Made by a program: the position numbers and the translations under genes. This document shows, piece after piece, positions 30,270-41,689 of a stretch of 42,873 nt of DNA (positions are counted from its first letter, which is position 1; every line of letters starts with the position of its first letter). The notes beneath the pieces are model-generated. The model did no database searches. It saw only the letters and a program-made list of their open reading frames with translations, and was not told where the DNA came from. Source of the stretch: a virus (lineage: Duplodnaviria; Heunggongvirae; Uroviricota; Caudoviricetes); the IMG/VR virus record IMGVR_UViG_2897369580_000001; one strand, written 5' to 3'.

Positions 30270-30301
30270 CACCACCAGCGACGCCAATCATCTGGTGGTG
30301 A
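30269..30301. promoter_or_regulatory. 10-bp inverted repeat abutting antirepressor start codon
   Basis: TCACCACCAG-N13-CTGGTGGTGA; 3' arm contains the probable RBS. Confidence 0.4.
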
Positions 30302-30511
30302 GCTGTGCAGGGTTGGCGTAACCGGCTAAGTGAACCCGGCGCTTCCACAGAAGCCCCCACACAGCCCACCATAATGCGAATGTGGCCGTGCCTAACACAT
30401 AAAAAAACCGCTAACGCGGCTATGCGTCACTTAGATATCCGGGACGCCAATCCCGGCAACCGATTTTGCGGCTGCGCGGAAACTATAGCCCCGGACTTTT
30501 TCTAAGTCAAT

Positions 30512-31687: not shown

Positions 31688-32098
31688 TCACGCCCCTTTC
31701 TTTGCTATCGGAGTGATGGAACTCAGCAGCAGGCGGCAGCGACCAGGCGCGCCAATGCGCTGCCCGGTTATCTTGTCGTAAGTTTCATGCGGTGAGGCAC
31801 ACCAGGTTGTCGCTGTTTCGTGGAGTTTCACTTGCCGCTCACCATTTCTGCGAATCGCGATCCCGGTGTGCGTTTTGCCCTTACGTTTCACTGCTGGCGC
31901 TGCGGCTACGGATGCCTGACGGGCAGGCTTAGCAGGGGTTGAAAAATTGCCTGCTTTAGGTCTTGGCACAAAAACCGCGCGAGTGCGCGCACGTGGCCCG
32001 ACGTTCATATTCCACAAAATGACGTCGAGATAGTTTTTACCGTCGTCTATGTGTCCTTTGTCCGACGGGTACTCTAATTTGCCTGGAGTGGTGGTCAT
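31688..32098 (-). CDS. Hypothetical protein (nin-like region)
   Basis: 136-aa ORF downstream of helicase gene. Confidence 0.4.
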   Translation of the reverse strand: MTTTPGKLEYPSDKGHIDDGKNYLDVILWNMNVGPRARTRAVFVPRPKAGNFSTPAKPARQASVAAAPAVKRKGKTHTGIAIRRNGERQVKLHETATTWCASPHETYDKITGQRIGAPGRCRLLLSSITPIAKKGA

Positions 32099-32136
32099 TG
32101 GTCTTTCCTCGGTTATTTCACGCTGGTCAGGCGTGG

Positions 32137-33552
32137 TTAAAATTCATTTGTGCGAGAATTATCGCTACGGGAATAACGTTTATTTTTTTCTGAGCGGTCG
32201 TTGGTAAGGCGATAAACCTCCTCATCGCTGATATCAATAACTGAGCCATTTTTCATCAGGGCATAGGCTGTTCCCGATGGTCCTTCGCGGTTCAGACGTA
32301 GCAACATTTCCATGAGATTTGGGTCGGCATTTTCGTTATAAACAGCATCACGATAGAGGCCAATCCAGACATCGCAATCTTGTTCGATCTGCCCGGTATC
32401 TTTACTGTCGCTCGGGTTAGGCCGCTTATCGGCACGTTCTTCAAGCTTTCGGTTGAGTTGCGTCAGCAGGACCACAACACAATCCAGCTCTTTTGCCAGG
32501 TTCTTCAAACCGGTTGTGATATCGCCATACGCAATATCCCTACGCTCTGCCGATTCGGTCTTCATCAGCGTCAAATAGTCAATTGCCACCAGGCCAACCG
32601 AGCCACGCATCCGTTTAACTTTTCGACATTCAGCGACAATATGCGCAAGGGTTACACCTGCCGTGCTGTCAATCATCATGTTGGATTCGGCAATCTCCCC
32701 CGCCTTTGCTATTGCGAGACTCAATTCAGATTCATCGTTAGGGCCAAGATAAAAAATCTCCGAATTGACCTTTGCTTCCTGCGCAACCATGCGTTCAATG
32801 AGACTTCTGTCAGTCATTTCCAGGCTAAATACCAGCGTCGGCAAACGATGATTCAGAGCAAAATGCACCGCAATTTTATTAAACGCGGCTGTCTTGCCCA
32901 TTTTTGGCCGGGCACCAATAACGACCAATGAACCTCTTAACGCCTGCTTTGGTGCCATTAAGCGATCAAGGCTTTCGATTCCGAGCGTTAGTCCGGCTGC
33001 ATGTGCTGGATCATTGAAACGGCGCTCAAGGTCATCTATCCAGTCATCGACGACTTCACTTGCCGGACGCAAACCGCCCTTATGCCCGGTACGGGAATGT
33101 TCGGCCACCTGCCCAATCACTTGCTGAACGGCGGTGATCCTGTCAGTAGCAGTCATATCTGCAGGCTGGATCATAATCTCCAGACAAGAATTCAACTTTT
33201 CCACGGCATAACGAAGAATGGCTTTTTCACGTACAATTTTCGCGTAGTTGACCATTGAGGCCGGAATCGCCGCCTTACTCATTTCAGCCAGGTATGCGAA
33301 TCCCCCCACGCGCTCATACAGCCCCTTCGATTCCATCAGTTCGGTCAGTGTTATCAGGTCAGTTGGTTTATCAGCTTGAAATAATCCTTTGATCTCCCGG
33401 TAGATAACCTGATGCGCATTGATATAAAACGTTTCCGGTTTCAGTAACGCAAATACCGCATTGGTTCTGTCGTGGTCGGTATTCAGCATCAGACAGCCCA
33501 GAACAGCCTGTTCTGCGTCAACGCTGTACAGTGCAATCGCGTTATTTATCAT
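32137..33552 (-). CDS. Replicative DNA helicase (DnaB family)
   Basis: About 471 aa from ATG at 33552; Walker A GARPKMGKT; DnaB-like N- and C-terminal domains. Confidence 0.9.
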   Translation of the reverse strand: MINNAIALYSVDAEQAVLGCLMLNTDHDRTNAVFALLKPETFYINAHQVIYREIKGLFQADKPTDLITLTELMESKGLYERVGGFAYLAEMSKAAIPASMVNYAKIVREKAILRYAVEKLNSCLEIMIQPADMTATDRITAVQQVIGQVAEHSRTGHKGGLRPASEVVDDWIDDLERRFNDPAHAAGLTLGIESLDRLMAPKQALRGSLVVIGARPKMGKTAAFNKIAVHFALNHRLPTLVFSLEMTDRSLIERMVAQEAKVNSEIFYLGPNDESELSLAIAKAGEIAESNMMIDSTAGVTLAHIVAECRKVKRMRGSVGLVAIDYLTLMKTESAERRDIAYGDITTGLKNLAKELDCVVVLLTQLNRKLEERADKRPNPSDSKDTGQIEQDCDVWIGLYRDAVYNENADPNLMEMLLRLNREGPSGTAYALMKNGSVIDISDEEVYRLTNDRSEKNKRYSRSDNSRTNEF

Positions 33553-34297
33553 TTGCGCGTTCTTCCTTGACCGAAACATAGCAGCGTTCGGTAATCAGAT
33601 AATCAAGATTTTTACGCCGCCAGAATCCTCCCCTGCCATTTGGCCTGTCCTCCAGCATCCAGCGACAATTGCCACCGATAAATTCCAGATAGGCCCGCCA
33701 ACGGGACTCATTGAAATTGAATTTTTTCCAGAAAGTGCGAAGGTGTTTTTTTCTGCCGTCAGTGAGGATTTTCACTGGTGGCATCTCTGGCAAAATCTCG
33801 TGATAGGTATCGAGTATCACCTGATAATTTATTCTCTGGTCGGCAGGTTGTTGGGTGTCGGCGTCAGCCGATTCACCATCAGTAATAATCTCTGTAGTAT
33901 TCTCTGTAAGAATGTTTGTTGGTTTTCCACGTACAGGCCTGGTGGTTTTCCCCTCACCTGTATGTGGTTTTTCCGCATCCTTGTATGCGGACGTAAGTAG
34001 CTGGCACAACACATCATTATCGATTTTGTAGTACAGCCTGGCAGGCAAGCCCTGTTTACGTTCCAGCAAGACGCCGAGACCACGTAGTTTTTTGCGCGCG
34101 CCCTCCTGCTCGTATCGTGAAAGCCCTGTTTCCTCTTCCCACTCATCCTGGGTTTTATATACCCAGCCGTCGTCAGTTGTTCTGTTTGTCCAGTACGTCA
34201 ACTGCGACAGAAACAATGCGGCAGTCACGCCCATTTCAAGACGGATAAAACTTCTCTGGAAGGCTATGGGTCTATCAAGTAACGGGAGGATGTTCAT
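33542..34297 (-). CDS. Phage replication initiation protein (replisome organiser, lambda O-like role)
   Basis: 251 aa immediately upstream of helicase gene; N-terminal winged-helix-like region. Confidence 0.55.
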   Translation of the reverse strand: MNILPLLDRPIAFQRSFIRLEMGVTAALFLSQLTYWTNRTTDDGWVYKTQDEWEEETGLSRYEQEGARKKLRGLGVLLERKQGLPARLYYKIDNDVLCQLLTSAYKDAEKPHTGEGKTTRPVRGKPTNILTENTTEIITDGESADADTQQPADQRINYQVILDTYHEILPEMPPVKILTDGRKKHLRTFWKKFNFNESRWRAYLEFIGGNCRWMLEDRPNGRGGFWRRKNLDYLITERCYVSVKEERANDK

Positions 34298-34518
34298 ATG
34301 CCCAAAGCCTCTGAGAGAACGCGACAGCCAGCCTCATAGGCAGCGCCAGAGAGATTTTGCTCACGCAGTTTCGCTTTTTCTTCTTCGTACTTTTCCCATA
34401 CAGAACGTGCAGCTGCGACGCGGCCATCGAATATGGGGCGGATCTCTGCAACATGTGCCGGGCGTCCATTCAGGTGCCAGCCGTTACGCCAGGTAATGCG
34501 GTCAATATGTCTTAACAT
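34294..34518 (-). CDS. Hypothetical protein
   Basis: 74-aa ORF between YdaT-like and replication genes. Confidence 0.35.
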   Translation of the reverse strand: MLRHIDRITWRNGWHLNGRPAHVAEIRPIFDGRVAAARSVWEKYEEEKAKLREQNLSGAAYEAGCRVLSEALGI

Positions 34519-34557
34519 CGGTCTTTCCTCGGTATAAGTTAAACGCTGGTCAGGCGC

Positions 34558-35034
34558 TCATGCATGGTGGTCTTGCGCAGTGCGTATCACTGCTCCTCGC
34601 GTCGCTACCAGCGCCGCTATTGCTTCGTCAATTTCCTGAATAGTTAACTCTGGCGCGAAGTGGAGATGTACAGCGTTAATCGCTTCCACCCCTTCTTTTG
34701 CCGCCAGCGTTGCCAGCAAAACGGGATCGCCCGGCGACTCCAGACGTGCCCGCCGTTCTGCGGGTAGCACGGCTTTCATCACACTGGCCAGCACCTGAGT
34801 TTTTCGGCGCGCCGCCGTTGTCTCGCCACGTAACCAGCGAAAGATTTTCTGCCGATTGTTGTTGATGGCTCTCCAGTCCACGTTGCCGTCCGCGTCCTCA
34901 AATTCATGTAGTCTCAACTCATCATTGCGTCCCTGACTGAACCAGGCCCGGCAGATTTCAATCGTGACGAGTTCCTGCCCTGCCCTTGCCGCCCAGGTCA
35001 AAATCTCTTTTTGTAATTCCTCTTGGTTTTCCAT
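34558..35034 (-). CDS. YdaT-like protein (putative CII-like regulator)
   Basis: 158 aa; ...QKIFRWLRGETTAARRKTQVLASVMKAVLPAERRARL... resembles Rac YdaT; directly downstream of Cro-like gene. Confidence 0.55.
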   Translation of the reverse strand: MENQEELQKEILTWAARAGQELVTIEICRAWFSQGRNDELRLHEFEDADGNVDWRAINNNRQKIFRWLRGETTAARRKTQVLASVMKAVLPAERRARLESPGDPVLLATLAAKEGVEAINAVHLHFAPELTIQEIDEAIAALVATRGAVIRTAQDHHA

Positions 35035-35092
35035 AGCGTCTCCTGTCGCTAAAAATTGATTACGCTTAATCAGATTTGGGGCTCACCAACAG

Positions 35093-35323
35093 TTAAGCTG
35101 CTTCCGTTTTAGGCAAGCTGTCATCTGGGTTTGGGTAAAGATCCGGTCTAAGATCATGAGGGGTCACGCGCCATTCAAGAGCTTCAGATGTGCGCAAAAC
35201 CTCTTCACCGGGAACCCGTCCTTTGAACCAGAGGCTTACCGTTTGTGGTTTTTTCCCTAATCGCCGCCCTAACTCGGATTGACTCATTACGGAAAGAATT
35301 TTGTCTTGCAGTTGTTTATCCAT
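35093..35323 (-). CDS. Cro/DicC/YdaS-like HTH regulator
   Basis: 76 aa from ATG at 35323 with AAGGAG RBS; HTH SQSELGRRLGKKPQTVSLWFKGRVPGEE; divergent from repressor gene. Confidence 0.65.
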   Translation of the reverse strand: MDKQLQDKILSVMSQSELGRRLGKKPQTVSLWFKGRVPGEEVLRTSEALEWRVTPHDLRPDLYPNPDDSLPKTEAA

Positions 35324-35348
35324 ATGGACTCCTTGTGTCCGCGTCATC

Positions 35349-35388
35349 ATTACAAACAATAACTGTAATTACAAATTATATTTGCAAT
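35349..35388. promoter_or_regulatory. Operator cluster in divergent immunity promoter region
   Basis: ATTACA-N9-TGTAAT (35349..35369) overlapping ATTACAAAT-N3-ATTTGCAAT (35368..35388). Confidence 0.5.
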
Positions 35389-35421
35389 GCTCCCTACAAT
35401 TAAACCTTGTATCCTTACGGT

Positions 35422-35835
35422 ATGAACACAAAAACGAAAAACATGGCTTTTGCTAGCCGACTACAACGGATTCTAAAAGACTTAGGCTGGTCTCAATCTG
35501 AGTTAGCTCGCCATATTGGGGTTACGGCTCAATCAGTTCAGGCATGGTGTAATGGGGTAACTCCAAGAAAAGATAAATTAGACAAGCTAGCAAAAGTGAC
35601 CGGATACCCTGTTCATTTTTTCTTCATGAATGAAGGGGAATATTTGGATGAATCCACACTACACCCGGGTAATTACAATCAAGAACTAACCCCGCAAGAA
35701 CAGGCTCTACTGCAACTATTCAGAGGACTGCCTGAGAGCGAAAAAAATAAATTAATCAATGAGCTAAAAGAAAAAAGAGAGCACTTCGATCTACTGCTAA
35801 AAGAACTACTTGAAGCCAAAAACCAGACAAAATAG
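35422..35835 (+). CDS. Prophage repressor, DicA-like (N-terminal XRE HTH, no S24 peptidase domain)
   Basis: N-terminal HTH SQSELARHIGVTAQSVQAWCNG; C-terminal ...LTPQEQALLQLFRGLPESEKNKL...LLKELLEAKNQTK resembles DicA C-terminus. Confidence 0.7.
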   Translation: MNTKTKNMAFASRLQRILKDLGWSQSELARHIGVTAQSVQAWCNGVTPRKDKLDKLAKVTGYPVHFFFMNEGEYLDESTLHPGNYNQELTPQEQALLQLFRGLPESEKNKLINELKEKREHFDLLLKELLEAKNQTK

Positions 35836-35953
35836 TTCAGTTCAAATTTCCAGGCCAGCCGCTGCTGGCATGCAACTTTCCCCTAACACAAAAACACCTT
35901 TACACAGTGAATATTTTTTTGCCCCTCACTACAAATTATTTTTTAAAAACACA

Positions 35954-35982
35954 TTGACCATTACAAATACAAATTGTAAAGT
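35954..35982 (+). promoter_or_regulatory. Early-left promoter candidate with operator-like palindrome
   Basis: -35 TTGACC (35954), 17-nt spacer holding TTACAAAT-ACA-AATTGTAA, -10 TAAAGT (35977). Confidence 0.4.
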
Positions 35983-36318
35983 CACTTTCATCAACAACGC
36001 TTACCCAGCGGCAGTTGTTCAGAAACACGTTCTGACAGCCGGAAAGACGGCACCAAATTTTGCGCGTCGGCGCCAACACGGTGACAGAGGGAAAGACTTC
36101 ACCGGCATATGGCACATGTGTCGAAGCGGTCTGGATGGAAGCGGAGCCTTAACGCGTTGTCTCCATAGCAGGTAGCCGGAATGTGCAAGCCACAGCCAGG
36201 TATGAGCGATTGATTCACCATCAAGGCGATACGGTGTGACCACCAGGGAAGAGTCCTGGCTACAACACGAGAGCGCACTTCATCGACTCAACTTTGAGCT
36301 TTGTCGTTAAATTTTGAA

Positions 36319-36404
36319 ATGGCGGAGTGCGCTCCCGGTTGTGGTGAACAGGTGTTTAACGGGAACTCCCTGCCCGTTACCCGGTTCGATTCCGGGCGCC
36401 CATC
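36319..36404 (+). other. tRNA-like element (T-arm signature; unverified)
   Basis: CCCGG-TTCGATT-CCGGG (36380..36396) is a canonical T-stem/loop; acceptor pairing imperfect. Confidence 0.2.
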
Positions 36405-36519
36405 ATCAATTTGCTGTGTTTAGTCTTTGCCCAGTCCGCACGATGGGCCATTTTTTCACACAGCCAGGTTTTATCGCTGTGCCTGAGTCCCCAACAGGAG
36501 AGGCCAAACCCGCAGCGTG

Positions 36520-36620
36520 ACACCAGGGAAAGACCGGAGGAAGTACCACGCCTGACCAGCGTTGACCATGAGCCTGACCAGCTCAAAACAGGAAAGACCA
36601 GCCCGGGCCTGACCAGCCCT
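36520..36620. repeat. Short direct-repeat array (CCTGACCAGC x3; GGAAAGACC-like x2)
   Basis: GACC cores at 36532, 36554, 36564, 36576, 36596, 36611; more copies downstream. Confidence 0.5.
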
Positions 36621-36845
36621 GTACGGTCGTAATGGAAACATAACGACGCCGGAAACGTAACCGGCACCCTTTAGATAGCAAAAGACCCGCACAAGGCGGG
36701 CCAGTTACCCCGAACGGCGACCAAACCATTCGGATTTATCACAAGTGACCAAACTTGTGATGAGGAAAGACCAACGACACTGACGCTATGGAAGCTGATC
36801 AATATTCGCTGATCGGCTCTGAGTATACATTACCAAGGAGTCGCT

Positions 36846-37166
36846 ATGGAAGCGCGCACCATCCCAGTAACACTCTTTATTCATTATGCAACTTCAACTT
36901 TCAGCCACGAAAAGCTGCTTGTTGCGACTGTTGATATGTCAAAAAATTTTCCAGACAGGTACATCCTTCTGGAAAGCCGCGAAATTGAAATTACCGTTAA
37001 CCAGCCCGAGCCAATCGACATCATCGGTTTACAGGTCGAGCAACTGCGTGAACAAAAACAGAAAACAGTCGCCGACGCCCAACAGCGTATTGCTGCTATC
37101 GATGACAAAATCCAGCAGTTACTTTGCATCGAATACACGCCAGATACCGATGAGCTCCCCTACTAA
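36846..37166 (+). CDS. Hypothetical early-left protein
   Basis: 106 aa; AAGGAG RBS 7 nt upstream; coiled-coil-like C-terminus. Confidence 0.5.
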   Translation: MEARTIPVTLFIHYATSTFSHEKLLVATVDMSKNFPDRYILLESREIEITVNQPEPIDIIGLQVEQLREQKQKTVADAQQRIAAIDDKIQQLLCIEYTPDTDELPY

Positions 37167-37196
37167 AAACCACTGACCTGTAATGAGGAAAGACCA

Positions 37197-39413
37197 ATGA
37201 CCATTTTTAACGGCTTGTTAGAAGCGAAAAAAGGCGCGCTCAAAAACGGCGCGATCCCGGCGCTGGCCATCGCCATCGCCGCCCCTAACAAAAAAGTTGC
37301 CGAGAACATCATCATCGGCAAATTGTGGGAAGCCTACCCTGACCACGGCGACAACTATTTCAAACCTAAAATCTGGGAAGATGCCCCGGGCCAACCGCGC
37401 CCAGGCGTCGGTGAGTTTGATGAGACGTTTGCCACAGAACACAGTTTTGATGGCGAAAAATGGGTAGTTAACACTCCTGTTGATTCAGATTGCAGTTCAG
37501 CAGATATCTCACAGGTTAGCGACCTGATGAAACTGCCGGCTCGTGAACGATTCGCCGCCGTTCTGCTGTTCAGCCACGACGCCAACGAAGTCGACAGTGA
37601 ATTGCTTGTGCAGACGCGTGAATACCTGGAGATGCTCGATAACAGTGATACTGACAGTGAGGATGAGGTTGACGCGTTTAACCGCATCGTTCTTGATGCC
37701 ATGGTGGCGTGTAAGCCCATCGAGTACATGCATATTGCTGGATTGAATAATCTGGTACATGCAATTTTGGCAAGTTGCGATACCCAGGAACAAAACCCGA
37801 CCAGTTGGACTATCTCCAAATTTATAAAAAAATGGGTAGAGAATCCCGGTAAACGAGATGAAATGCTGCCGGAGGTAAAACCAGAAACAGCATCCGCACG
37901 TCCTTACAAACAGACTCACGCCACTCTGGATCGTGAAATTGCCTGCGCCCTGTTACCTGTTGCCCCGGAAAAAATCACCCCCAGCATCCTGAAAGCGGCA
38001 GACGAAATAATCAGTCAGGACAGGGAAGATTTTAAACGCTGGTCAATGGCCTTGCGCACAACGGATCAGATCCTTGCCTATGACCGCGCATCAGTATTCG
38101 GTGTTATTCAGAGCGCCCCCGCAAAAGACACGTACCACTTCCCACAATCCCTGCGCAGTCACATCGACAACTGGCTGCAAGCTAACGGGCAGCGTGATGC
38201 AAATGCTGTTGAAGAGAAGCCAAAGGAAGCAGCACCCAAGGATGATGTAAAAGTCACCAACCACGGCGGCGGACGATTCTCAATTGATGGGATGATGTCA
38301 GAAACACCCTCAAATCAGGGCGAAAAAAGCGAAGCTGCAAATGCTGGAGAACGTAGTTTGCAGCAGTTGCGTGAGCAGTTTGTCACGCCTCGCCATGTGT
38401 ATGACGTACCTGAAAATAACGCCGTATCACAGAGGGAACCTGCAGCTATTACCCTGGCAGAAGAGACTCCTCCACAAGAACAACTTAGCGAGCAGGTAAA
38501 GGATCTGGTGCAGAACGTTGACGCGCTGGTTGAGCGGATCCATGCCGAAGAGCACAAGCGGCAGAATGCAATCTCAGCTATCGAAACGGAGTTAAAGGAC
38601 TCAGATGACACGGATAACCTGGCATTGTGGAAGAACGTATTCAAAACCGATGAGCGCTTCACCAGTGCTTTCTCTCAGAATGGCGGCGGCACATCCATCA
38701 ACGGCACTTATATAGCGATGAAAGCGACTCGCGAATTTGGGCCATTTGGTATTGGCTGGGGGGTAGAGGTGCTGGAGGAGCGCTTTGATAAAGGCGCACC
38801 AATAGTTCGCAAAAAACAGGTTGGTGAAAAAATAGAATGGGATCTGATTCAAGACGGTGTTGGCGGGTACCTATGTGAAATGCACCACACCATGAAAGTG
38901 AGAGTCTGGTACATATTGAATGGGGTACGCGGTGAGTCCGAGGCTTACGGATGCACACCTTATATCTACGACACTAAATACGGACCAACAAGCGACGGCG
39001 AAGCACCGAAGAAATCCTGGACGGATGCTGTTAAGAAAGCGCTATCCCCTCTCGGATTCAGCGCCGATATTTTCATGGGCCTGTACGACAATCCGGAATA
39101 CCGCCAGAGGAATAAAGCTGAGTTTGATATCAAGAATGCCAGCGAGAATGCGGAAGATGCTACCCGTCTGCGTAAGGAACTGGATGAGAAGCTTATCAAC
39201 GTTGCCAATACGCTGGCCGCCGCGGTAACCGCCAACGAAGTAAACAAGGTATTTGGCCTCATCGCCCGCGAAGTGGATGTACACAGGAAAGCAGCGGAAA
39301 CCAAAGGCGATAAAGAATATTCATCGTATCTGGGATCACGTCTGCGCCGTATCACCGACATTAAAACTGAACGCCTCGCCGCCCTTACCGCTGCACAGGA
39401 GCAAACAGCATGA
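37197..39413 (+). CDS. Large recombination protein with C-terminal Rad52-like annealase domain
   Basis: 738 aa; ...KKSWTDAVKKALSPLGFSADIFMGLYD... resembles the Rad52/Sak signature; conserved RBS motif. Confidence 0.55.
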   Translation: MTIFNGLLEAKKGALKNGAIPALAIAIAAPNKKVAENIIIGKLWEAYPDHGDNYFKPKIWEDAPGQPRPGVGEFDETFATEHSFDGEKWVVNTPVDSDCSSADISQVSDLMKLPARERFAAVLLFSHDANEVDSELLVQTREYLEMLDNSDTDSEDEVDAFNRIVLDAMVACKPIEYMHIAGLNNLVHAILASCDTQEQNPTSWTISKFIKKWVENPGKRDEMLPEVKPETASARPYKQTHATLDREIACALLPVAPEKITPSILKAADEIISQDREDFKRWSMALRTTDQILAYDRASVFGVIQSAPAKDTYHFPQSLRSHIDNWLQANGQRDANAVEEKPKEAAPKDDVKVTNHGGGRFSIDGMMSETPSNQGEKSEAANAGERSLQQLREQFVTPRHVYDVPENNAVSQREPAAITLAEETPPQEQLSEQVKDLVQNVDALVERIHAEEHKRQNAISAIETELKDSDDTDNLALWKNVFKTDERFTSAFSQNGGGTSINGTYIAMKATREFGPFGIGWGVEVLEERFDKGAPIVRKKQVGEKIEWDLIQDGVGGYLCEMHHTMKVRVWYILNGVRGESEAYGCTPYIYDTKYGPTSDGEAPKKSWTDAVKKALSPLGFSADIFMGLYDNPEYRQRNKAEFDIKNASENAEDATRLRKELDEKLINVANTLAAAVTANEVNKVFGLIAREVDVHRKAAETKGDKEYSSYLGSRLRRITDIKTERLAALTAAQEQTA

Positions 39414-40045: not shown

Positions 40046-41193
<1,148 letters not shown>

Positions 41194-41464
41194 TATGGCA
41201 CCTGTGTTGTTCTGAGGTGAGCATATCACCTCTGTTCAGGTGGCCAAATTCAGTAAACCACTTCAGTTCACCTGGTACTTGCCGATGGTACCAATGGCAT
41301 TATTGAAGCACGGAGCCGCTGCGAACTTGGGCTACACCTGCCAGAAAACATTAAGGTCACTCGGGAGAAATCGGCATTCACCCCACAAGAACTGATTACG
41401 CCTAATCAGAAATAAAAACTCACCATCGCTAGCATTGCGATTCACCAGACACCGGAGGATCACA

Positions 41465-41689
41465 ATGCTGCGATGGCAACCGGGAGCAACTCTGCTCTCC
41501 GCATTTGATATCAAAATTGGTCGACTGTCGGCCAGCGTCAGGAAACAGACTTTGACCGAGTCTGATATTGCCCGTGCCTGCCAGAAGGCAGATGACGCAA
41601 TAAGCTACATAATGAGGAAAGACCATGAAAAGCGATCACGACATAATCACCAGAGAAGAAATGGTCGAGCTGACGGGAAGCCCACTTAA
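41465..41689 (+). CDS. Hypothetical small protein (uncertain; overlaps excisionase-like gene)
   Basis: ATG at 41465; overlaps 41625..41888 in another frame. Confidence 0.2.
   Translation: MLRWQPGATLLSAFDIKIGRLSASVRKQTLTESDIARACQKADDAISYIMRKDHEKRSRHNHQRRNGRADGKPT

Follow-up and report, generated by a model that had tools for sequence, protein, structure and literature searches.

Structured RNA elements of both strands form an untranslated mosaic upstream of the early-left operon in a lambdoid Escherichia coli prophage

What does a temperate phage carry in the 860 or so nucleotides (nt) between its repressor gene and its early-left operon, if no gene can be recognised there? We addressed this question in IMG/VR virus record IMGVR_UViG_2897369580_000001, a DNA of 42,873 nt (its full length is called the window here). 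The element that holds the leader in question is a lambdoid Escherichia coli prophage, in which a helix-turn-helix (HTH) repressor gene, the leader and the early-left operon follow one another on the plus strand. The leader is a real, non-trivial RNA locus. Positions 35990-36845 are an untranslated leader of the transcript from a PL-like promoter, without a conserved open reading frame (ORF), and we are confident that they are non-coding and assembled, mosaic-like, from structured RNAs of the two strands. The best overall explanation that we can offer, and one on which we are evenly divided, is that this two-strand mosaic includes antisense control of ribosome-binding sites (RBSs). Features described below lie on the plus strand unless stated otherwise.

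An untranslated leader of conserved RNA pieces

A preliminary description of the window, made from the letters alone, had found no convincing ORF in the leader, and our data agree: there is no conserved frame, no codon periodicity and no accepted family match. No coding sequence is annotated between 35835 and 36846 of the window. A search of 5426 complete E. coli genomes yielded near-identical copies of 35850-36900 in 474, and the identical prophage occurs, for instance, in an ST131 strain; in the E. coli copies RefSeq/PGAP places no gene between the repressor and ORF1, the first early-left gene of 106 amino acids (aa). The ORFs of 48-121 aa that can be called mechanically in the leader match no Pfam or PHROG family, barring a weak match (E=0.017) between phrog_6855 (function unknown) and a minus-strand ORF at 36102-36278, which lies over the structured element that we call X. 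This minus-strand frame stays open in 20 of 32 X variants. Since the variants differ in length by numbers that are not multiples of three, show no 3-nt period and vary at the base-paired columns, we judged the match to reflect spurious ORF calls on X; phrog_6855 itself was probably built from such calls on a conserved RNA. The homologous leader of phage BUCT708, which is 72% identical, also shows many insertions and deletions that are not multiples of three. Arginine-rich ORFs resembling lambda N were not found in the leader, as the preliminary description had stated, and no arginine-rich motif was found in ORF1.

That description had also left room for a small or structured RNA in the non-coding PL leader, and this is the option that covarying structures bear out. 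Folding with covariation across relatives, which it had proposed as a check, revealed compensatory changes in X and in the hairpins of a predicted antisense RNA. An Rfam scan, proposed likewise, returned weak matches to RprA and isrB, and X, an adjoining element Y and the 5' module of the leader matched nothing at gathering threshold or at E<=10. Four elements had escaped that description: X, a T-arm like that of a tRNA, a terminator like that of RprA, and the IsrB-like antisense gene.

Conservation was followed in a syntenic set of 50 viral loci, fetched with the 106-aa protein as bait. Relatives in which this first early-left protein is only 52-59% identical still carry pieces of the leader in unchanged order: the 5' module; a variable slot; a tail like that of the host RNA RprA; short hairpins with loops AUGACCA/CUGACCA and GAAAGA; a G+C-rich hairpin between an A-run and a U-run; two hairpins with loops GACCAA or AACCAC; the invariant GAGGAAAGACCAAY; a GATC hairpin; and finally an RBS and ATG. 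In the window, the leader ends with the RBS (AAGGAG) and ATG of ORF1 at 36835-36848, and ORF1 occupies 36846-37166.

The 5' module (35989-36100) was delimited by folding and conservation and comprises five stem-loops: SL1, with an A/C-rich loop (35993-36019), SL2 (36019-36035), SL3, GCCG-GAAAGA-CGGC (36038-36051), SL4 (36062-36073) and SL5, whose loop contains GGGAAAGAC (36080-36103). It lies just downstream of a sigma-70-like promoter, TTGACC-17-TAAAGT (35954-35982), which is the only promoter-like site on the plus strand within 34900-37400 and has an operator-like palindrome, TTACAA-N7-TTGTAA (TTACAAATACAAATTGTAA; 35961-35979), between its hexamers. Among relatives, promoter and operator sequences vary with immunity type, and the distance from the -10 to the start of the leader is constant. 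Irrespective of operator type, BUCT708 and every one of the 50 syntenic loci keep the module from the inferred +1, about 7 nt past the -10. As the promoter and operator upstream differ completely between immunity types and the module does not, we regard it as a feature of the transcript. No second copy of the module was found in the window, including downstream of PR. A homologue (CATCGACAACAAGCGCATCGTTGTCAGG...GTTCCGCTGGCCGGCGATAAGGCAAA) is located at the start of the PL transcript of Gifsy-2 (our locus L314, 6700-6760; L numbers are our labels for loci).

Between the 5' module and the RprA-like tail, the variable slot measures 78-911 nt among relatives, and its cargo is nothing, hairpins, other RNAs or an ORF. 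In the window it is filled by an insertion of about 310 nt (36101-36407) that is missing from most relatives. Where relatives have matching flanks and no X, the leader is about 400 nt long, and 78-133 nt separate its 5' module from the RprA-like tail. In two close relatives, L137 and L145 (~1250-1770), a protein-coding gene (start ...GGAGAAGAGATGGAACTTCGT...) is found between the 5' module and X, and the slot can therefore accept ORF cargo.

Parts of the leader were also seen farther afield. Pectobacterium phage ZF40 (L207, 2501-2653) has the 3' part of the leader at 70% identity between its cI repressor and its exonuclease operon; the annotated start of ZF40 gp08, which overlaps this shared part, may be mis-called. 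BUCT708 (OM816834) and BUCT709 (OM816835), deposited as Stenotrophomonas phages, have an immunity region of enterobacterial type, the same early-left genes and the whole leader at 72%. Their assignment to a Stenotrophomonas host looks doubtful.

Element X and the composite RNA unit before the terminator

Element X (36101-36267) is a structured RNA domain recognised by covariation. Its helices are P1 (36103-36123), P2, P4 (36210-36224) and P5 (36243-36259), and two pseudoknots are proposed, one between the loop GCAC and GUGC of the invariant GGUAGCCGGAAUGUGCAAG (36171-36189) and the other between the loop CACC and GGUG (~36233-36236). In an alignment of 32 distinct sequences, each more than about 5% different from the others, 96.7% of cells are paired in this structure of four helices and two loop-helix pseudoknots, compared to 25-45% when the partners are slid. 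Compensatory double changes occur at 10 pairs (70 cells); for example, the pseudoknot CACC/GGUG becomes AACC/GGUU. Many of the G.U pairs would be C.A on the opposite strand, which indicates that the X RNA runs in the PL direction. RNAalifold, run on the raw alignment, favoured an invariant GCACAU/AUGUGC pairing over P1, and we treated this pairing, which has no covariation support, as a pseudoknot or an alternative pairing. Minimum free energy folding of the whole 474-nt PL RNA was uninformative.

A covariance model built from the X alignment (R1) scored the window copy at 143.9 bits (E=5e-43) and found no further copy in the window, in relatives with short leaders or in ZF40. X has no family match in Rfam even at E<=10, the Rfam models of the GOLLD and ROOL RNAs were unmatched by the window at the same cutoff, and the X core was not found in literature searched by sequence. 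The segment 36103-36274 recurs, at 70-77% identity, in unannotated intergenic DNA of unrelated phages. Carriers include the Uetakeviruses SPN1S, Tyrion and PAT1, in which X is positioned between the terminase and portal genes on the opposite strand, the P1-like phage-plasmids D6, SJ46 and Ro157c2, and Klebsiella phages. An invariant 19-mer of X, GGTAGCCGGAATGTGCAAG, was present in at least 120 viral contigs; when these are pooled with the phage matches, there are 114 distinct variants among those listed. The same 19-mer is found in 664 of 5426 complete E. coli genomes, with 196 places on plasmids, and is annotated in none of them. Species-representative genomes yielded 24 loci, all from Enterobacterales genera bar two bins of metagenome-assembled genomes.

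The neighbours of X recur as well. Among 132 distinct X units, tRNA-Arg(UCU) lies downstream in 23, right after Y, tRNA-Met(CAU) lies directly upstream in 14, and an RprA-like tail follows X in 33. The unit formed by X, Y and the tRNA-like domain is mobile among unrelated enterobacterial phages. A strong consensus promoter was detected just upstream of X in 26 of 130 units, mostly from one lineage. We also considered a protein partner for X and dropped it, as the ORFs called next after X are a mixed group (ban-type helicase, N4 gp49-like, DUF2829-like and others) with many spurious calls among them. In viral contig L090 (~3350-3420), X is followed by a terminator and then by a perfect rrn-type boxA (TGCTCTTTAACAA), which suggests an antitermination site of the NusB/E type in that phage.

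Downstream of X, element Y (36262-36342) was detected as an inverted repeat and forms a long hairpin with a variable apical part. Its closing helix pairs ACAACACGAGAGCGCACT (36262-36279) with AGTGCGCTCCCGGTTGT (36326-36342) and is kept through differing sequences in other phages: the mean for cognate duplexes is -24.3 kcal/mol, compared to -18.9 for non-cognate ones. Y is followed by a degenerate tRNA-like domain (36341-36407), recognised from its fold and from a weak match to Rfam tRNA-Sec (19.3 bits against a threshold of 47, E=0.9). The domain has an acceptor-like GUGGUG/CAUCAU, an arm at 36357-36379 and a T-arm at 36380-36396 of canonical form, CCCGG-UUCGAUU-CCGGG (GGUUCGAUUCC). Other phages have at this position either a genuine tRNA-Arg(UCU) or else a domain closed by GUUGUGGUG/CACCACAAC; in BUCT708 the tRNA-like domain is deleted. 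We rejected a tRNA identity for 36341-36407, since the cloverleaf is recognised neither by ARAGORN nor by Rfam and the T-arm alone is canonical. ARAGORN reported zero tRNA genes in the window and in 10 relatives.

The insertion abuts a module that resembles the 3' end of RprA (36408-36458), identified by a terminator scan and Rfam. It consists of UUUGCUGUGUUUAGUCUUUGCCC, a hairpin at 36429-36448 and a U-run, which together make an intrinsic terminator, and its sequence can be aligned to the 3'-terminal 48 nt of E. coli RprA. The Rfam RprA model (108 nt, gathering score 70) gives 37.4 bits in the window (E=0.016) and 42-50 bits in relatives; these scores are under the threshold because the 5' two-thirds of RprA are missing. 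The consensus of the tail among relatives is AUUGCUGUGUGUAGUCUU followed by the hairpin and U-run, and in relatives L158 and L165 about 24 nt before the terminator are identical to K-12 rprA. The terminator stems co-vary.

At least 120 viral contigs contain an RprA-like 16-mer, TGCTGTGTGTAGTCTT. Of 126 distinct loci with it, 79 have a structured head of another kind before it, and a Y-type hairpin and tRNA-like domain are often present as well. Composite units that end in the RprA-like tail and differ in their heads (e.g. ..CCACCGAGCCTGANGTGGTGAAAAGACAGGCA..) were seen in L219, L208, L220, L090 and about 75 other IMG/VR loci, and RprA-tailed units with other heads are unannotated in E. coli RefSeq genomes. 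Judged from its sequence, the terminator of the tail would end the PL RNA at about 470 nt in the window and at about 125-180 nt in most relatives with short leaders. We found no self-target of the tail within the window, and literature on RprA-like or RprA-homologous RNAs yielded nothing concerning phages.

A ribosome-binding-site motif and a predicted antisense RNA

Beyond the terminator, the leader is rich in short repeats. The motif that the preliminary description had reported three times, GCCTGACCAGC, is exact at 36550, 36572 and 36607, compared to 0.00 copies expected from dinucleotide shuffles. A second motif, GGAAAGAC, is present five times in the leader (36041, 36090, 36527, 36591 and 36764; 0.03 expected) and 11 times in the whole window (1.2 expected). 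GACC cores had also been noted, at a spacing that suggested phasing. The enrichment stands, with nine copies of GACCA where 1.8 are expected, and the phasing does not: in the second half of the leader the spacing is 10, 12, 20 and 15 nt, which is irregular. The repeats are conserved in relatives, recurring in syntenic loci in which the first protein is 52-59% identical.

The three CCTGACCAGC repeats are three hairpins that have different 4-bp stems and one common loop: ACGC-CUGACCA-GCGU (36548-36562), GAGC-CUGACCA-GCUC (36570-36584) and GGGC-CUGACCA-GCCC (36605-36619). Several GGAAAGAC copies form GAAAGA loops, such as GCCG-GAAAGA-CGGC. An A/C-rich array of small hairpins and orphan motif copies extends over 36459-36676 and includes a further hairpin, GCCGG-AAACGUAA-CCGGC (36648-36665). 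The array is about 85% identical to that of BUCT708, and its counterparts in relatives, H1 and H2, have covarying stems. Taken as a whole, the array is no more stably folded than shuffled sequence (z=+1.7); unstable folding of the stretch with the CUGACCA loops and orphan copies is what would be expected for accessible sites.

The positions of the motif outside the leader explain its identity: there, GGAAAGAC is the RBS context of early genes. The longer form GAGGAAAGACC is located 0-2 nt before the ATG of ORF2, which encodes 738 aa (37183-37199), of a DUF4224-like gene (41612-41627) and of two genes of the rightward operon (34518-34532 and 32098-32112, both minus). The two rightward-operon copies also have a CGC-CUGACCA-GCG hairpin upstream. 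In 35 relatives, 68 of the 71 motif copies outside the leader are followed by ATG or GTG within 5 nt, in both operon directions, and 123 of the 124 copies inside leaders have no such start codon. Copies of the RBS cassette of the phage that lack a start codon have thus built up in the leader. The repeats are copies of an RBS-associated motif, GAGGAAAGACCAA, which often comes after a hairpin with loop YUGACCA. One orphan copy, GAGGAAAGACCAAC (36762-36775), has ACG where genes have ATG and is invariant in 31 relatives; it belongs to a 26-nt repeat (D2) of the ORF2 RBS region (37176-37201), to which it is 88% identical.

On the minus strand, the end of the leader next to ORF1 is predicted to encode an antisense small RNA (sRNA) of the IsrB family, about 130 nt long (~36680-36812). 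Its -10, TATACT, is at 36822-36827 (plus coordinates). The RNA would comprise, in this order, the single strand GUUGGUCUUUCCUC, hairpins H4' (36738-36761) and H3' (36710-36733), each with the hexaloop UUGGUC, and the G+C-rich hairpin (36684-36702) as terminator. In relatives this last hairpin is a bidirectional terminator (A-run, hairpin, U-run); the minus-strand terminator-like site of the window reads GGCCCGCCTTGTGCGGGTC+TTTTGCT. The 8-bp inverted repeat that the preliminary description had placed at 36739-36760 exists, as 9 bp (36738-36746/36753-36761), and it is hairpin H4 of the antisense RNA. Folding of the window's minus-strand RNA gave z=-6.7, with two UUGGUC-hexaloop hairpins and then the terminator. 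The antisense -10 (TATAAT; TATACT in the window) is invariant in 31 sequences and overlaps the RBS region of ORF1.

In a 31-sequence alignment of this region, 93.6% of cells are paired, with double changes at 20 pairs (117 cells). For each of the three helices closest to ORF1, both the pairing and the number of G.U pairs point to the minus strand. H3 is paired in 81.5% of cells on the minus strand and 68.9% on the plus strand (24 and 5 G.U pairs, respectively), H4 in 99.3% and 97.0% (7 and 1), and the terminator helix T in 98.2% and 93.1% (12 and 1).

IsrB-1 and IsrB-2 are experimentally mapped sRNAs of 88 and 94 nt from the Salmonella prophages Gifsy-2 and Gifsy-1, antisense to their neighbours and induced by starvation (PMC2330248). 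Like them, the window has a hairpin with a UUUGGUC-containing loop and a Rho-independent terminator on the strand opposite the early-left genes. The Rfam isrB model (gathering score 35), which gives 99.3 bits for true IsrB-1, scores the minus strand at 36.1 bits in L149, 33.1 in L150, 32.4 in L174 and 25.8 in a further relative. On synteny, architecture and the scores that its relatives reach, we group the antisense RNA with IsrB, though the window copy is under threshold. In Gifsy-2 (L314, 5993-6080), IsrB-1 is antisense to the 5' untranslated region of sbcA, and its promoter lies over the sbcA RBS.

These elements suggest a mechanism in which both strands would take part. Upon derepression, most RNA from PL would stop at the RprA-like terminator, at a length of about 470 nt. 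A cut of the RNase P type at the tRNA-like domain would free a stable X-Y RNA and a short Hfq-type sRNA with RprA 3' sequence; the cleavage, the release of X-Y and the nature of the tail sRNA we infer from architecture only. Read-through RNA would bear the orphan motif copies. The IsrB-like sRNA, transcribed convergently from a promoter of its own that overlaps the ORF1 RBS, would pair with the motif through its UUGGUC loops and GGUCUUUCCUC, with UUGGUC facing GACCAA and GGUCUUUCC facing GGAAAGACC. Because the single-stranded GGUCUUUCCUC and the UUGGUC loops are complementary to GAGGAAAGACCAA, the RNA could occlude at least four early-gene RBSs in the two operons (starts 37197, 41625, 34518(-) and 32098(-)). 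The best predicted antisense duplex in the window is with the ORF2 RBS, which is 88% identical to the sequence opposite the antisense RNA (D2). The orphan leader copies would act as targets in cis or as decoys, titrating the sRNA and imposing a threshold on early expression; the CUGACCA loops, which are the complement of UGGUCA, might serve likewise. Repression of early-gene RBSs by the antisense sRNA, with the leader repeats as cis targets or decoys, is a tentative proposal to which we give somewhat less than an even chance.

Several observations weigh against this model. The isrB score of the window itself (36680-36764, minus) is 15.2 bits (E=9.8), under the gathering threshold of 35, and its antisense gene is the weakest member of the group, with a TATACT -10, a poor -35 and a short U-run. 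H1, H2 and the three CUGACCA hairpins carry no strand information. Gifsy-2 IsrB and its neighbours do not use the GGAAAGACC motif. Complementarity to the motif is automatic in an RNA that is antisense to one copy, and so it is not independent evidence of action in trans. Autonomy of X is shown for a subset only, as a promoter precedes it in only those 26 of 130 units. Finally, an intrinsic terminator (36458) lies between PL and the early-left genes, and the model does not account for its passage.

Competing explanations, genetic setting and known systems

Passage of that terminator is what an antitermination reading would provide. In it, the leader or its 5' module would work in cis as a processive antitermination RNA like HK022 put, or as a nut site whose N-like factor has escaped recognition, and would let transcription continue past the RprA-like and later terminators. 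The 5' module begins at the inferred +1, as putL does (PMC9378689), is conserved across immunity types and is followed in every relative by an intrinsic terminator that has to be passed for the early-left genes. However, its conserved stem-loops are unrelated to putL in structure and sequence, neither BLAST nor reading of putL showing any similarity, and the window has no second copy on the PR side comparable to putR or nutR. No sense-strand boxA was found in the leader and no arginine-rich N-like ORF. The put comparison of the preliminary description is not supported for the repeat-rich part; only 35989-36035 shares the position of put. We consider antitermination by such a site unlikely. It leaves the repeats, X and the antisense gene unexplained, covers 35989-36035 only and is compatible with the two-strand model, and for this segment we keep it because passage of the 36458 terminator is still needed.

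The repeats themselves have been open to other readings. Short motifs that recur at 10-22 bp beside an immunity region could be DNA sites along the helix for a protein, such as iterons or sites for a recombination directionality factor, an IHF-like protein or a repressor, and phased protein-binding sites had been among the first suggestions. This is highly improbable: the spacing is irregular (10, 12, 20, 15), the motifs are in loops of hairpins whose stems co-vary (ACGC/GCGT, GAGC/GCTC, GGGC/GCCC), true operators differ in sequence, and the motif, always in the sense orientation, belongs to the RBS context of early genes on both strands, where 1-2 nt separate it from the start codon. Alternatively, the hairpin and RBS cassette may mark module boundaries at which mosaic phages recombine, and repeated gene loss between cassettes may have left functionless tandem orphans as scars. 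The very variable cargo of the slot (78-911 nt), a motif copy number that differs among relatives and the fact that X is itself an insertion all fit such a history. We nevertheless find it distinctly unlikely, since orphan copies are kept in all 35 diverged relatives at about 3.5 per leader, stems co-vary, and the second half of the leader is more conserved with respect to BUCT708 than the flanking protein genes suggest. Orphan copies might also bind 30S subunits, as standby or decoy sites that shield the untranslated leader from Rho and RNase E, or a translational regulator such as CsrA or a phage protein. They have the Shine-Dalgarno core AGGA, with GGA in hairpin loops, and lie in a poorly structured region (36500-36640, z=+1.7). 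GGA alone is not enriched, though (20 versus 16.3 expected), the conserved unit is much longer than a CsrA site and no candidate regulator was identified; we find this explanation improbable.

The genes around the leader are those of a lambdoid immunity region. The HTH repressor gene (35407-35835; Pfam HTH_3) is upstream, and the minus strand holds a cro-like gene (35093-35359), a YdaT-like gene, a replication protein gene and a DnaB-type helicase gene (32137-33579). The early-left operon comprises ORF1, ORF2 (start 37197), a Gp157-family gene, an IS3-family insertion, the DUF4224-like gene and the integrase gene. The insertion (~40046-41229; orfA 40891-41229 and orfB 40046-40864, both minus) splits the operon between a 63-aa ORF and the DUF4224-like and integrase genes; the SA186 copy of the prophage is without it. 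A complete immI cassette of the P1/P7 type was also found by Rfam at 30291-30488 (minus), with C4 antisense RNA at 75 bits, a1/b1 targets at 53 bits and isrK at 80 bits, which implies an antirepressor module in this lambdoid prophage.

We found no description in the literature of X, of phage RprA-like tails or of an RBS motif paired with an anti-motif RNA. About 12% of complete E. coli genomes, and many phages, carry X. As a pseudoknotted RNA with strong covariation and without an Rfam family or annotation, it is a target for work on structure and function, possibly in tRNA biology or anti-defence. The wide carriage of RprA 3' sequence by phages suggests mimicry of, or common ancestry with, a host stress regulator. 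If the antisense model is true, IsrB, an orphan prophage sRNA known since 2008, would gain a function as a repressor of early-gene RBSs with decoys in the leader, and lysogeny control would have an RNA layer alongside the repressor. A broader and rather doubtful extension is that X, Y, the tRNA-like domain and the tail represent an undescribed class of composite non-coding RNAs of enterobacterial temperate phages and phage-plasmids. Such RNAs would have interchangeable heads and be cut at the tRNA or tRNA-like domain into a stable pseudoknotted RNA and an Hfq-type sRNA with the RprA 3' end, acting on host targets, host rprA possibly being a domesticated relative. In addition, sRNAs of the IsrB family would target RBSs and, together with decoys in PL leaders, gate early expression.

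Comparison with known systems places each part of the leader beside a different relative. A put RNA is a structured element of some 70 nt immediately after the early promoter and acts as a factor-independent antiterminator by way of the zinc-binding domain of RNA polymerase beta'; a lambda-type nut site combines boxA with a boxB hairpin on the sense strand, and an arginine-rich N gene follows downstream. As in HK022 put and the lambda nut/N system, a conserved structured element is located at the start of the PL transcript, upstream of terminators (PMC9378689); unlike them, the window lacks sequence similarity, a PR-side copy, boxA and N. GOLLD and ROOL are also large pseudoknotted prophage RNAs, often near tRNA genes and of unknown function (PMC5737381), whereas the unit of X, Y and the tRNA-like domain is smaller (about 310 nt, or about 360 with the tail), confined to Enterobacterales, modular and ended by an sRNA-like tail. 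The host RNA RprA (RF00034), which is Hfq-dependent, shares its last ~48 nt with the phage module (AAUUGCUGUGUGUAGUCUUUGCCC, terminator hairpin and U-run), with near-complete identity in several relatives. The rpoS and hdeD pairing regions, in the 5' two-thirds of RprA, are missing from the phage module, which is instead the 3' end of much longer phage transcripts; the hdeD seed is in the 5' part of RprA (PMC5861431).

Like IsrB (RF01386), the antisense RNA of the window is predicted to lie on the minus strand of the early-left region of a lambdoid prophage and to be convergent with PL. With Gifsy-2 IsrB-1 it shares a terminator, a UUUGGUC-loop hairpin (GACCAAAG complement) and a promoter that overlaps the RBS of the next early-left gene. 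It differs in being longer (about 130 rather than 88/94 nt), in having two UUGGUC hairpins and the GGUCUUUCCUC stretch, and in its position upstream of the first early-left gene, where Gifsy-2 IsrB-1 precedes sbcA. In P1 and P7, the loops of a small phage RNA, c4, likewise pair with short repeats in a leader and at the RBS of the regulated gene. The c4 RNA is unrelated in sequence and structure and is processed from the target strand, whereas the window RNA is convergent (antisense). Finally, cluster K mycobacteriophages have start-associated sequences of their own, termed SAS and ESAS: a motif longer than the Shine-Dalgarno sequence lies a few bases before some start codons, sometimes with an inverted repeat upstream. 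Their motif and host are different, and the phage studied here has, in addition, orphan copies of its motif in a leader and a gene for a complementary sRNA.

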